Shown one piece after another: positions 7,594-24,400 of a stretch of DNA of 38,940 bases (positions are counted from its first letter, which is position 1; every line of letters begins with the position of its first letter). Below the pieces are notes generated by a model, which saw nothing but the letters and a program-made list of their open reading frames with translations, made no database searches and was not told the DNA's origin. This DNA comes from Methanobacteriota archaeon (lineage in GTDB: Archaea > Thermoplasmatota > Thermoplasmata > SG8-5 > DAIRED01). Made by a program: the position numbers and the translations under genes. The DNA is taken from assembly GCA_043799545.1 (NCBI GenBank), contig JAZDNO010000003.1:1-38940 (forward strand), written 5' to 3'.

Positions 7594-7650
7594 GACGTTC
7601 ACCTCCGATGGAGGGACTGAGGGGACACCATATCAACGGGAGAGGCTACA

Positions 7651-7889
7651 TGTAGCAAACTATTTATCCGCACCTGGATTCCCCTGCCTTGCCTCTTTGA
7701 AATTAAAATGGGCCAGAGTTCTACCCGTAAGCCCTTTCTTTGTGCCTCGCTGCGCTGGCAGAGCCCTCGCAAAGAAAGCCCTTGGGTTTAAGAAACTCGG
7801 GCTCCGCCTTCTCGCTCGGCCGTTGTAGCAAACTATTTATCCGCACCTGGATTCCCCTGCCTTGCCTCTTTGAAATTAAAATGGGCCAG
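7651..7889 (+). repeat. Perfect 66-bp direct repeat (7651-7716 and 7824-7889) containing the tRNA promoter region and the first 7 nt of tRNA-Ala
   Basis: TGTAGCAAACTATTTATCCGCACCTGGATTCCCCTGCCTTGCCTCTTTGAAATTAAAATGGGCCAG occurs twice, 173 bp apart. Confidence 0.95.
7710..7804 (+). ncRNA. Candidate long-hairpin RNA or miniature inverted-repeat element
   Basis: Nested pairings GGGCC/GGCTC, GAGTT/AACTC, ACCC/GGGT, CTTTCTTTG/CAAAGAAAG, TGCC/GGCA. It lies directly behind the first promoter copy. Confidence 0.45.
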
Positions 7890-7956
7890 TAGATCAGCCC
7901 GGAAGATCGCTTCATTGGCATTGAAGAGGCCGCGAGTTCGAATCTCGCCTGGTCCA
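7883..7956 (+). tRNA. tRNA-Ala(GGC)
   Basis: Acceptor stem GGGCCAG/CTGGTCC with G3:U70, D stem GATC/GATC, anticodon arm CTTCA-TTGGCAT-TGAAG, T arm GCGAG-TTCGAAT-CTCGC, discriminator A, no encoded CCA, no intron. Confidence 0.97.
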
Positions 7957-7957
7957 C

Positions 7958-7967
7958 TTTTTATTTT
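7958..7967 (+). terminator. Oligo-T terminator after tRNA-Ala
   Basis: TTTTTATTTT immediately after the tRNA. Confidence 0.6.
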
Positions 7968-8097
7968 ACATCGATTGCAGCCAGTGGACTTAAAATCCTA
8001 ATGTTCATATCAGGCTTACCTCGGGCAAGGCTGGGTATATGGCTTCCTTGCCCTCGGTCTCGCCTGGTCAGGCTTTCCTTTAATGGCTGAAATGGAT

Positions 8098-8362
8098 TCA
8101 ACTTTCGGACAGAATTTCGTCGCGTATCCTCTCCAGTTGTGCATGCGCCTTCTTCACGTTGATGGCAAGGTTCTTCGCCGGTTCGGTAGTAGCTCATGTG
8201 CGCCTTGATGAGGCAGGTGCCGCCCTTGAAGACGAGATTGTCCCGCAAGTATGGATCGTTCGAGACCGCATGCAAGAGCCTGTGGAGGTGGAAGTCCTTC
8301 TCGATGATGTCCGGGCGCTTTGGCTTCCCGAGGGCGTTCAGGCGCTCGAAGAACTCCTTCAC
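8098..8362 (-). pseudogene. AbiEii-family nucleotidyltransferase toxin with internal deletion and frameshift
   Basis: The N-terminus DIIEKDFHL..LVFKGGTCLIKAHMSYYR stops where the family FSED motif is expected (~8184). A different frame then gives EPAKNLAINVKKAHAQLERIRDEILSES*, ending at 8098. Confidence 0.8.
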
Positions 8363-8994
8363 GGAAGGTCCCCCAGGGCGTCCTGGAACCTCACTGGGTA
8401 GCGCTTCAGGTACTTCGAGAGTTTCTCGCGGTCGAGCTTGGAGATGTGCTCATCGATGATTGCTTTCGATGAGCCTTTGCCGCTACGGTGCGCCCTGTAA
8501 GCCAGGTCCAGAACGGTCTTCTCCGGGTCTGAGTAGGCCAGGCGCCCCTTGTGAATGACGCCAAAGTTCAGGCGGTCAGGGCTCCATCTGTGGAACTGGA
8601 ACTTCGAACCGAGGATGCCGATGACCTTGGTGGTCCTGAACGAGCCCGTCGCGACGGAGTCGACCGCGAAGTACTCGTGGGTCATTCCGTTGAGCTTGAG
8701 GGCGGTCTCCAGGCCGAAGTGCCATCGCTTCACGCCTTTCATCTCCAGAGCCTCCGCCACCAGCTCGTAGGTCGACCGTTCGGAGAAGCTGCGCTCGCGC
8801 TCGTCCGCGCTCCGGACGTAGAAAACGCCCCTGAGGATCCGAGCGATGTAGCCATGCTCCATCAGGTATCGGAGGCTCCGGGTCTCGTCCTTGTCGAGGC
8901 GCTTTGCCAGCGCCTTTATCTCGCCGGATGTGACTATTCTGCGCCCGTCGACGAGCAGCTTTCTCCATATCGTGGGTGTGTTCATCTCGGTCAT
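8359..8994 (-). CDS. AbiEi-family (type IV TA) antitoxin / wHTH regulator
   Basis: GYIARILRGVFYV, HFGLETALKLNGMTH, SDPEKTVLD. GTGA overlap with the downstream AbiEii-like gene. Confidence 0.8.
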   Translation of the reverse strand: MTEMNTPTIWRKLLVDGRRIVTSGEIKALAKRLDKDETRSLRYLMEHGYIARILRGVFYVRSADERERSFSERSTYELVAEALEMKGVKRWHFGLETALKLNGMTHEYFAVDSVATGSFRTTKVIGILGSKFQFHRWSPDRLNFGVIHKGRLAYSDPEKTVLDLAYRAHRSGKGSSKAIIDEHISKLDREKLSKYLKRYPVRFQDALGDLP

Positions 8995-21469: not shown

Positions 21470-24400
21470 ATGGGTAACGAAGGTGCGAACTGGGACGAGT
21501 TTATTAAATATCTGGACCAGGTCAAGAAGCGCGAGCAGGAGCTTGACCAGAAGGACAGCGCTCTCAAGGAAGACATCCGAGTTTTTGAAGCCAGGAGCGC
21601 AGAGGTAGATTCGAAGCTGAGGGGGCTTGAAGATAAGGCGTCGGAATTGGCTGAGAAGGAAAGGCTGATTGCCGAGAGGGAGAAGTCTTTTGCAGCCCGC
21701 GAGGAGGAGATCGCCCGCAGGGGCGACGAGCTGGCGGCGGGCGAATCCGAGATGAAGAAGAAGGAAGCCGCGCTCGAGAGGGAAAACGAGGCGGCCAGGG
21801 CCAGGGAGGAGTCAATCTCCGAGAAGGAGATGCTCGCGGCCGAAATGGAGAAGGAAGCGGCGTCGAAGTTGTCCGAGGCCGCGGCCAGGAGCGACGAACT
21901 GGCTTCAAAGGAAAAATCGCTCTCGCACAGGGAGGAGGAGCTGGCGAGCAGGGATTCCACAATCAAGGAGAGGGAGGAATTCATCTCAAAGGAGGCCGAG
22001 GTCGTCAAGGCAGGGATGGAGAACCTGTCCTCCAAACAGGCCGAGGCCGCGCAGAAGGAAAGCGCCCTTGCGGAGAGGGAGGCAGGAGTTTCCGCGAGGG
22101 AAGAGGAATTGGGCGCTGCGGAGAAGTCGCTTGCCGAAAAGGACACGAACCTCGTCCCGAGGGAGAACGCCTTGGCCGAAGGCGAGAGGCGGCTCGCCGC
22201 GAAGTCGGATGACATCGGAGAAAGGGAAAAGTCGCTTGCCGAGAGGGAGGGCGCGCTGGAGCGCAGCAGAGCCGAGGTCGCCGAGAAGGAGACATCCCTG
22301 AAGGCCGATGTGGAGAGATTCGCTGCGATGCGCGACGAGTTGGAAGCCAGGGAGGCTGAACTGGCTGGAAAGGGGGACGTGCTCAAGGGGGCAGAGGCGA
22401 CCCTGAGGCAGGTCGAGGCATCGCTGTCCGCGAGAGAAACTGCCGTTGTGGAACGGGAGGGCGCGCTGGCTGGCGGGGAGGCCAAGCTGGCCGAAGATGC
22501 GAAGACATTGGAGAATCAGATGGCGGAGTTCGCCTCAAGCGAATCGTCGGTCCGGGAGAGGGAGGCCGGACTGGAAGCGCGGGAGGCGGCCATTGCGGAG
22601 AAGGAGAGCGCCTTCTCGGGCGAAGTAGATAAATTCAAAGGCGAGGCGGAACGGCTGGAACGTAGAGCAACGGAGCTGTCCGCCCTTGAAACGGAACTCA
22701 AGCAGAGGGAGGGTGCGCTGGCGGAAAAAGAATCGGATCTGGCGGGACGGGAGCAGACATTCGCTGGGGAGGCTGGCAGAATCCAGGAAGAGGCTGAAAA
22801 GCAGGAGCAGAGGGCCGCCGACCTGAAGGAGATGGAATCTTCTCTTCTCGAGAAGGAGGCGCAGCTCGCCGAGAGGGAAGCTGCCCTGAAGACAAAGGAA
22901 AAGGATTTCGAGGGCGGGCGCCAGGAGTTCGAGGCGGCCGAGGCGGAAGTCAGGGAGTTCCAGGCGACCCTGACGAAAAGAAAGGCCGAGCTGGACGAAA
23001 GGGAGGCGGCTCTGCGCGTCCGCGAGGAGGGGCTGGACAAAGGGCTGGCCGAGAGGGAGAGCCTCGTGGCCGTCAAAGAAAATGGAATTGTCGAGCGCGA
23101 GAACCTCATCGCCACGAAGGAGAAGGATGTGGCCGAGCGCGAGGCGGATTTGAAGGCGCTGGAAGAGAGGCTTGCGGGAAGCGAGGTCGCATTCGCGGCG
23201 AGGCAGAAGGAGTTGGATTCCCAATCGCAGGAGTTTGCGGCCGCCAACGATGACGTGAAATCTCTCCAGGCGACCCTGAACTCGAGGATGGCCGAGCTTG
23301 ATGCGAGGGAGGCGTCGGTTCGCGCCCGCGAGGAGGGGCTGGACAAAGGGCTGGCCGAGAGGGAGAGCCTCGTGGCCGCCAAAGAGGGGGGAATGGCGGA
23401 GCGCGAGAATCTCATGAATGCAAAGGATGCGGAGCTTGCTGCAAAGGTGAACGCCTTGGCAGAGAGGGATGCGCAGCTGGCCGAGCGCGAGAGGAAGCTG
23501 GCCTCTGACGAGTCTGGCATTTCAGAGAAGGAGAGGAACCTGCAGGAGTCGGAGGCCCGCATCCGGGAGTCCGAGCAGAGGGCCGCCGCCGAGAGGGACA
23601 ATTTGGCCGCGAGCCAGACCGGGCTTGCGAGCGCGGAGGCCCTGCAAAGGCAGCTCGACGAGCGGGGAGCGGAGCTCGAGAGGCTAAGGGCGGAGCTGGA
23701 TTCGGCGAAGGCGCAGGTCGATGGTGAAAAGGCGTCGGCGGCGGAAATGGGCGGAACGCTGGCCAGGCGCGAAACTGCGCTCGTGGAGAAAGAGACAGGG
23801 CTAGCCGCACGCGAGAGCGCGCTCGCGGAAAAGGAGGCCGCGGCGAGCCAGACCAGGGAAAAGCTCGAGACCCAGAGGCGCAACATAGAGAGAATCAAGG
23901 AAGAGATGGAGGCGAAGCTCGCCGAAGTCGAAGCGAAGAGGAAGGAGCTCGCCGCGAAGGACGCCGTCCGCGAAGCGCAACTGATGACTGAGGAAAAGGC
24001 GGAGATTGAGGCGTCGGAAGTTCCGGACACATCTCAACCGCCTGGAATCCAGGCGCCAGTCGAGCCGGAGCAGATAGAATCGGCCATAATCGTCAAGGGC
24101 CCTGAAGCGCCCGAAGAGGAAGTCCAACTTGCCGAATCGCAGGGCGATTCATCCAGTCTGGCGGAGCAAACGGTCGATGCGGAGGCGCTCGCGACGGTCC
24201 CGCCGGAGGAGATTGTAATCGCCGCAACCGACACACAGGCACTGGCGGCGGAGCAATTGCCCGACGGGCAGATCGAGTGCCCGGGCTGCAAGACTCTGCT
24301 GGACGGCGACACCGCGATGTGCTACAACTGCGGAGAGGTCATAACGAACAACATCAAGCCCGGGAACGCGGAGCCGGAGAAGCCGGCGGAGGAAACTGTG

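Follow-up and report, generated by a model that had tools for sequence, protein, structure and literature searches.

A tRNA-Ala locus with an additional 107 bp

The window, which is the whole 38,940-nt stretch analysed here, is contig 8 of a 31-contig metagenome-assembled genome (2.06 Mb, 94% complete) of a Thermoplasmatota archaeon, and we compared it with G001, a Thermoplasmatota MAG (DAIRED01) that is the sole congener in the genome collection. The locus under study carries a tRNA-Ala(GGC) gene, the assembly's only gene found with that anticodon by ARAGORN, and its sequence is identical in G001. A repeat search revealed a 66-nt direct repeat at 7651–7716 and 7824–7889, 100% identical and with starts 173 nt apart; the perfect recurrence of a 66-mer within 173 nt cannot be due to chance. 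Both the repeat and the continuation of its second copy as tRNA-Ala had been noticed in a first-pass annotation made from the sequence alone, and both were borne out. Beyond GGGCCAG, copy 1 leads into an unrelated 107 nt (7717–7823). The features of the locus are as follows.

7645–7656, unstranded: 12-bp palindrome GCTACA/TGTAGC, the centre of which is the outer edge of the duplication; ancestral, also in the G001 empty site
7651–7716, plus strand: copy 1 (A′), the spare copy of the duplicated target, with the ancestral upstream context kept and the upstream junction as in G001
Within copy 1: promoter-like AAACTATTTATCC at 7657–7669, leader, and tRNA nt 1–7 (GGGCCAG)
7717–7823 (107 bp), plus strand: inserted module copy, absent from G001; covariance model score 110 bits
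7717–7726: less conserved module leader, resembling tRNA nt 9–19
From about 7727: start of the conserved module core (GTAAGCCC)
7729–7731 and 7734–7742, pairing with 7770–7778 and 7781–7783: helix A
7744–7766 with 7799–7820, unstranded: helix B, which includes GGCAGAGCCC/GGGCTCCGCC and is interleaved with helix A
7790–7796: second purine tract
7824–7889, plus strand: copy 2 (A) of the duplicated target, the promoter and leader serving the intact tRNA; continues into the gene
7883–7957, plus strand: tRNA-Ala(GGC), intact (ARAGORN; Rfam RF00005, 63.2 bits)

In G001 (G001:C169), the same neighbourhood contains a single 66-bp segment and no 107-bp spacer. This empty site reads GGCTACA/TGTAGCAAACTATTTATCC ... 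GGGCCAG/TAGATCAGCC, with TAGATC following GGGCCAG, and because it holds the palindrome together with both outer junctions, all of these are ancestral. The window has gained 173 bp, that is, 107 bp plus a second 66-bp copy. Since the sister species is single-copy and spacer-free at this position, the window represents an insertion with a 66-bp target duplication. The first-pass annotation had placed the left edge of copy 1 at the centre of the palindrome, where it indeed lies; no comparable palindrome was found at the edges of other insertion events. GGGCCAG is part of the duplicated target and not of the repeated element. BLAST placed the 66-bp segment nowhere else in the genome, so both junctions must derive from the window locus. 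The inserted 107 bp contains no mobility gene, and its open reading frames are chance frames that cross the repeat.

The tRNA gene is unaffected by the insertion because the downstream copy gives it a complete promoter, leader and 5′ end. In that copy the first 21–26 nt, TATA-like box included, are conserved in G001 and the remaining leader diverges, a pattern of conserved box versus diverged leader that fits a putative promoter now present twice. Between the promoter-like box of copy 1 and the tRNA there is no run of five or more T, and a long leader containing the module is therefore probably transcribed from copy 1. Copy 1 probably still fires, in which case RNase P would remove this long leader with its plus-strand module, and a read-through transcript from the duplicated promoter is possible.

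The window locus is one of three repeat-bearing loci of the present genome that are empty in G001; at one of the three, a module is present in a different family of the order. Conversely, none of the seven module loci of G001 is occupied in the present genome. Module loci thus turn over between congeneric species.

Structure and distribution of the module

BLAST and nhmmer searches of the genome identified about 20 full-length copies of the module, 70–87% identical to the window copy, and several partial or divergent ones. All are intergenic, squeezed between genes and in either orientation to their neighbours, and the window copy is the only one of the roughly 20 that is adjacent to a tRNA gene. 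No two copies in the genome are more than 94% identical (median pairwise identity 78%), yet several of the repeats that flank them are perfect. With a covariance model, 20 of the order's 22 genomes proved to have the module, at 3–32 copies each, and weaker BLAST matches occurred in two genomes belonging to other orders of the class. When 185,579 species genomes were scanned for the exact pattern, the CTTTCTTTG variant turned up in the sister species alone and no new events came to light; a scan of viral contigs gave no match. In metagenomes, 46 loci were recovered, three of which were GC-rich coding false positives, and independent metagenome contigs displayed the same repeat–module–repeat architecture. 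Judged from these sequence comparisons, the module is a mobile, gene-less, structured family found across one order of uncultured Thermoplasmatota archaea. We found no description of the family in the literature searched, a coverage that leaves out most subscription journals.

The module measures 95–110 nt and has two conserved boxes, CTCGCTGYGCTGG and CTGCTCGCTCGG, and two purine tracts. Its inverted repeats are internal only: there are no terminal inverted repeats, the ends (GTAAGCCC.../...CTCGGCCGT) are non-complementary, and no longer element with the module's ends was found in the genome. Helix A pairs the pyrimidine tract CTTTCTTTG (7734–7742) with the purine tract CAAAGAAAG (7770–7778), a perfect 9-bp stem already seen in the first pass. 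It is paired in 98% of alignment cells, with the compensatory variants AAA/TTT, AAG/CTT and CAG/CTG and, at the level of the family, CCTTTTTCC/GGAAAAAGG. Helix B consists, in the 19-copy alignment, of a long 5′ arm and a 3′ arm that enclose a rapidly varying central stem; RNAalifold reported compensatory changes in 7 of its pairs, and its single mismatch in the window, A7760–C7805, would be a G–U pair on the minus strand. Over the whole 19-copy alignment, 13 pairs showed double-sided changes, with 51 cells against 15.5 expected and none of 500 shuffles reaching the observed value, a count that is not a probability, as the copies are related by descent and the counts non-independent. The interleaving of helices A and B would correspond to either a pseudoknot or alternative folds.

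Across 102 aligned copies, helix B comprises 1444 Watson–Crick, 10 G–T and 50 A–C pairs, and the complementary strand folds more stably in 81 of 99 copies. The excess of A–C over G–T mismatches and the stabler minus-strand fold therefore indicate that the folding strand, whether RNA or single-stranded DNA, is probably the one opposite the tRNA's, on evidence that is weak and with strand base composition also differing.

These results bear on the structural claims of the first-pass annotation in different ways. The fold-back hairpin that it described over this region is no thermodynamic outlier, with single-sequence folding z-scores of −1.1 (plus strand) and −0.5 (minus strand), neither significant; a structure nonetheless finds support in the covariation between copies. 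Pairing of GGCTC with GGGCC in the manner of an acceptor stem is not supported, since GGCTC (7801–7805) lies in the 3′ arm of helix B and has its partner at 7757–7766. Among the checks that had been suggested, those for further genomic copies (about 20 full-length), for covariation (13 pairs changed on both sides, 0/500 shuffles) and for an empty site in a relative (single-copy and without the spacer in G001) all turned out positive, and Rfam matched nothing over 7717–7823 at E ≤ 10, the tRNA alone being matched in the region.

Gene-end duplications flank module copies

We aligned both flanks of every copy with each other, using 1500 random genome positions as the null (95th percentile 11.5, 99th percentile 16). 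Flanking repeats above the 99th percentile were present at 4 of the 20 high-scoring full-length nhmmer copies of the present genome:

C8 (window): 66 bp
C12: 43 bp perfect within 59
C23: 30 bp, one mismatch
C22: 41 bp, diverged

The divergent copies C31 and C28 added exact repeats of 38 and 43 bp. Among 61 copies from nine other genomes, 23 had abutting repeats of 17–126 bp (scores of at least 16), and one further copy had a repeat of 170 bp that is separated from the module by 30 nt. Overall, flanking repeats are 13–170 bp long and variable between events, and at least one third of the copies sit between a spare and an intact copy of the neighbouring gene end. This variable duplication, together with the empty site in G001 and the multi-copy family, upholds one of two readings offered by the first-pass annotation, that of a 107-bp miniature element inserted with a 66-bp duplication. 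Clean inserts are 89–111 nt long with ends ragged by 0–10 nt, and 16 clean events shared no fixed motif at either junction and had ragged tails. In relatives, the targets include a tRNA 5′ end (where the repeat is AT plus nt 1–14), a tRNA 3′ end broken in the T-loop, and both 5′ and 3′ ends of protein genes. Two ideas about the repeat edges were discarded. A fixed ruler of 66 bp had been suggested by two independent perfect 66-bp repeats, and the wider sample spans 17–170 bp; an RNA-templated model, with edges set by transcript ends, conflicts with the window repeat, which begins upstream of the promoter box.

The arrangement has a constant polarity. With the module in the orientation of the window's plus strand, the spare copy lies 5′ and the intact gene 3′, whether the gene is co-directed or convergent, and it is much more frequently from the module-3′ copy than from the opposite one that open reading frames run on into the flank. 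Of about 20 events with an identifiable open reading frame, 9 have a start or stop codon no more than 3 nt from the outer repeat edge. Differences between spare and intact gene ends fall mostly at third codon positions (41 of 60), with a synonymous to non-synonymous ratio of 41:19. Since both the module copies and the genomes are related to one another, such counts are less independent than they look.

The most extreme recoding was seen at the alaX C terminus (contig 9), where 13 of 13 codons differ between the copies and 12 residues are kept, the two copies differing from each other at 16 of 39 positions. The G001 orthologue, an empty site, differs from the distal spare at 9 of 39 positions and from the functional copy at 11 of 39. 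The functional copy is no closer to G001 than the spare, and the functional end therefore looks imported, on small numbers. At the C28 locus, a related metagenome contig retains two synonymously diverged copies; in the present genome, spare-copy sequence has replaced 43 bp in the middle of the functional copy, forming a conversion tract. Given such gene conversion, perfect identity of a repeat is no proof of a recent event. Units of module plus repeat also form arrays with non-identical modules at one boundary, and in one species a second unit was added at the same boundary after divergence from a sister at about 94% identity.

Models for the origin of the duplications

We favour, at about an even chance of being right, a model in which a unit made of the module and a gene-end copy recombines with the resident gene end. 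The module would travel with a copy of the adjoining gene end, which would act as an att-like homology arm, and a small circular or permuted linear unit of this kind would recombine with the resident end in a Campbell or ends-in fashion. Either host homologous recombination or a putative structure-specific recombinase acting on the folded minus strand could be the catalyst, and the product would be spare copy, module and intact gene in that order. Later, gene conversion could act between the copies, unequal exchange could give rise to arrays, and deletion could lead to loss. Under this model, the repeat edges at start and stop codons, the excess of synonymous differences, the conversion tract, the existence of arrays and the disappearance of copies would all be explained. 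Compared with a simple staggered cut, we infer that it is preferred by the start- and stop-codon edges, the third-position bias and the recoding of alaX, and likewise by the C28 conversion tract, the arrays of non-identical modules and the diverged extension that follows perfect identity in the window.

That extension can be read in two ways. After the perfect 66 bp, copy 1 continues as AGTTCTACCCG, which resembles the tRNA continuation TAGATCAGCCCG and, on alignment, also the leaders of other module copies. An identity core with a diverged margin is the outcome expected from a crossover between the resident target and a unit of module and target-homologous arm. It is just as conceivable that the 5′ end of the module itself forms the margin and resembles the D-arm by chance; this would be microhomology and would favour template switching. 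A margin-identity permutation test was positive (0 of 2000 permutations), as it would be for microhomology and for decayed repeat margins alike. A donor tRNA flank as the source of the leader is unsupported, as no tRNA in the genome has a D-arm matching AGTTCTACCCG.

Several considerations weigh against the recombination-arm model. A 173-bp double-stranded circle is physically strained, and homologous recombination fails both for fully recoded pairs such as alaX and for arrival at new targets, so that the model still requires an illegitimate first step of some kind. Another possible source of the synonymous bias is flanking homologous recombination that later transfers an ordinary target duplication from one diverged strain to another. 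In the present genome, no recombinase, transposase or reverse transcriptase is linked to any module copy, and a search extending 2.5 kb from each of the three Y1 transposase genes and the four tyrosine recombinase genes uncovered no module-like sequence. Neither the RVT_1 reverse transcriptase (PF00078) nor the IS1634 transposase (NF033559) was found in this 94%-complete genome. The Y1 transposase is conserved and single-copy in most genomes of the order; its presence does not track that of the module, and G005, at 92% completeness, has the Y1 gene and lacks the module. It is a less probable, indeed unlikely, variant that the modules are recombination sites of an undescribed archaeal system akin to a miniature integron or att system. 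Here, a folded single-stranded site of about 100 nt would be recognised by a putative trans-acting recombinase, and gene ends (promoter plus 5′ end, or last codons plus stop) would be captured and swapped as tiny cassettes. Such a system would explain the fixed polarity, the start and stop edges, the recoded spare ends and the non-identical arrays.

Classical transposition in trans is a doubtful alternative, though one with real points in its favour. A candidate transposase would join the module ends to the target at a wide, variable stagger, gap repair would produce the 13–170-bp duplication, and only those insertions whose duplication rebuilds a complete gene end would survive. The empty site corresponds to one repeat copy, the repeats abut the module and vary in length, and loci turn over between species, all as transposition would have it; long variable repeats of 8–514 bp whose mechanism is unmodelled have been published (PMC2266710), and reaching new loci requires some such mechanism in any case. 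The module, however, has no terminal inverted repeats and its insert ends are ragged by 0–10 nt, an IS1634-family transposase was not found in the 94%-complete genome, and the constant orientation to the gene, the repeat edges at start and stop codons and the mostly synonymous differences between copies speak for something else. Nor does the genome contain a near-identical pair of copies, despite several perfect repeats. Ragged ends with short filler-like tails speak for replication template switching, in which a nascent strand would leave the gene end, copy a module elsewhere, re-anneal upstream and recopy the segment, with hairpins promoting the switch. Homology at the junctions of certain events (L111, for instance, with the 11 nt CGGCACTTTTT), the resemblance of the window tRNA D-arm to the module leader at 8 of 12 positions, and repeat lengths of tens to about 170 nt also agree with it. 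We regard template switching as decidedly unlikely all the same: many junctions lack microhomology, the margin-identity test does not separate microhomology from decayed repeat margins, and the start and stop edges, the synonymous-biased divergence and the repeated independent additions at the same boundary are left unexplained.

The two remaining explanations concern the window itself. According to the other reading of the first-pass annotation, the locus encodes a promoter-driven structured RNA with a tRNA-like 5′ end (an RNase P substrate, decoy or antitoxin), and the duplication serves its expression. In its favour, the promoter-like box of copy 1 is intact and matches the working box exactly, the tRNA is not preceded by five or more consecutive T, and the module structure is conserved. 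This reading is nevertheless very improbable and was not supported by the family-wide comparison, in which just one of about 20 copies has a tRNA nearby and neighbouring genes are found in both orientations. The tRNA-like bases are the target duplication, the acceptor-like pairing competes with the covarying helix B, and the mismatch types point to the opposite strand (A–C versus G–T at 50:10 on the plus strand, with the minus strand folding better in 81 of 99 copies); there is also no Rfam family match. That misjoined reads of a multi-copy repeat created the structure is scarcely credible, even in a 31-contig metagenome assembly, because the 66-bp segment is unique in the genome, making both junctions local, and because the same architecture recurs with other repeats and lengths in the present genome, in nine others and in independent metagenome contigs. 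A SINE-like retroelement was rejected as well, PF00078 not having been found and the duplicated 66 bp including untranscribed promoter DNA.

If the recombination-arm model or a relative of it is true, an entire order of uncultured archaea harbours, per genome, dozens of gene-less elements of 100 nt, all placed at gene ends and each either bringing along or generating a duplicate of the end beside it. With a gene-less insert, the sequence requirements would lie within about 100 nt plus the repeat, which would make the mechanism easier to study. For genome annotation, the spare promoters, start codons and C termini would be easily misread as uORFs, attenuators, split genes or pseudo-tRNAs, and the recoded spare ends would provide a sensitive marker of recombination between lineages.

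Relation to known elements

The closest published class is the bacterial 'insertion with long target duplication', reportedly described by Nobusato et al. in 2000, and the window locus is an archaeal miniature version of it. The bacterial cases are kilobase-sized restriction-modification units, no archaeal case passed the published screen (Furuta, Abe and Kobayashi 2010, PMC2853133), and their repeats often span translation start or stop sites (PMC2853133). Like these insertions, the module has no transposase or integrase of its own and faces a single-copy empty site in a related genome; the repeats are tens to hundreds of base pairs long and variable, genes survive, the repeats allow amplification, and the mechanism is unexplained (PMC2853133). 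The insert described here differs in being a structured repeat of 100 nt, free of genes and present dozens of times per genome, rather than restriction-modification cargo, in its constant orientation to the gene, and in repeats that include recoded, synonymous-only versions.

A second parallel is with the attL/attR sites of elements that target tRNA genes or gene ends, and with CIMEs, the gene-less remnants of such elements. Both duplicate a gene end while restoring the gene, and both show a core of identity bordered by diverged margins, coding selection on the replacement end, tandem accretion at one site and the possibility of precise loss. In contrast to these, neither the 107-bp insert nor its immediate surroundings contain an integrase, none of the genome's four tyrosine recombinase genes is linked to a copy, and the window target is a promoter plus tRNA 5′ end, not the usual 3′ half. 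One module family also occupies many unrelated targets, which disfavours a sequence-specific integrase, as this would not allow such spread.

IS1549/IS1634 elements are 1.5–2 kb long, with a DDE transposase and inverted ends, and the IS1634 family is common in Euryarchaeota. Their insertion makes direct repeats of 8–514 bp, for which there is no mechanistic model (PMC2266710). Long variable direct repeats are thus shared with the module, which is without inverted ends and in whose genome that transposase family was not found.

The module resembles REP/BIME sequences, IS200/IS605-derived PATEs and MITEs in being small, intergenic, multi-copy and gene-less, with compensatory structure, strand-asymmetric folding, clusters and partial tandem copies, and in the presence of Y1 in most genomes of the order. 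Target duplications do not arise with REP and PATE elements, and those of MITEs are short and of fixed length. Unlike REP and PATE elements, the module is accompanied by duplications, has no Y1 gene beside any copy and is not tracked by Y1; unlike a MITE, it has no terminal inverted repeats matching an IS, and its duplications of 13–170 bp are variable. Membership among the MITEs, REP/PATE elements, integrase–att elements or IS1634 was rejected, the module failing at least one defining feature of each.

The tRNA-linked repeats (TLRs) of E. coli comprise 22 units with neither a known function nor a known mechanism (PMC8144298). They are functional look-alikes of the module: units of about 100–180 nt, next to stable-RNA genes, that finish in a perfect duplicate of the end of the adjacent gene. 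TLRs copy 18–19 nt of the 3′ end, occur in tRNA and rRNA operons only and are conserved in position, whereas the module mostly flanks protein genes, is accompanied by 13–170 nt of either end and turns over between congeners. If the reading given above is true, puzzling copies of tRNA, rRNA and gene ends, such as these E. coli repeats, may have a common origin.

Repeated module gain at one boundary

Comparison of two individual module loci from other genomes of the same order, L095 in G004 and L112 in G007, revealed that these two species, approximately 94% identical to each other, have in common a module adjoining a tRNA 3′ end. A further, non-matching module unit has since been added in G004 at the identical T-loop boundary. 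Within module clusters of the genome under study (G000), partial tandem re-duplications were found on contig 11 (3312–3540) and contig 25 (21976–22149), as perfect repeats of 74 bp and 63 bp, each with the module 3′ half.

The end of a protein-coding gene carries a module at locus L021 (G000 contig 9, 8113–8311), where two copies of the alaX C-terminus flank one module copy. These two copies differ in 13/13 codons and are identical in 12 residues. The distal copy ends in a stop codon that overlaps the ATG of the next gene, and the same overlap is present in the uninterrupted orthologue of the sister species, G001.

Other hairpin modules at tRNA ends

G000 also has other hairpin-module families at tRNA ends, unrelated to the window module, which are flanked by exact 19–24-bp duplicates of the 5′ or 3′ end of tRNA-Thr, -Asn and -Arg. 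At the following four loci the spacers measure 83–117 nt, and a promoter-like AAAATCC box terminates some spacers of these families.

Unrelated hairpin-module loci in G000
contig 6, 45447–45735
contig 26, 2936–3072
contig 10, 121591–121890
contig 5, 40234–40684

In the window, the final 12 nt of tRNA-Ala, TCTCGCCTGGTC (7943–7954), recur at 8058–8069, preceded by an approximately 100-nt trailer containing an imperfect hairpin with arms CCTCGGGCAAGG and CCTTGCCCTCGG; thus the 3′ side of tRNA-Ala, too, has a hairpin plus a gene-end copy. The trailer is common to the window and G001 over its first approximately 30 nt only.

Neighbouring genes and other repeats

Immediately downstream of tRNA-Ala lies an AbiEi-like/AbiEii-like pair (7961–8994, minus strand), judged from translation:

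8359–8994, minus, AbiEi-like antitoxin ORF
7961–8362, minus, AbiEii-like nucleotidyltransferase, following the AbiEi-like ORF

The nucleotidyltransferase looks truncated or frameshifted. Elsewhere in the window, a perfect 53-bp direct repeat with a 253-bp spacer (23020–23378) lies within an apparently repetitive coding region. At the extreme contig end (38751–38876), briefly interrupted runs of 23–30 A could represent either low-complexity sequence or an artefact of the assembly end.
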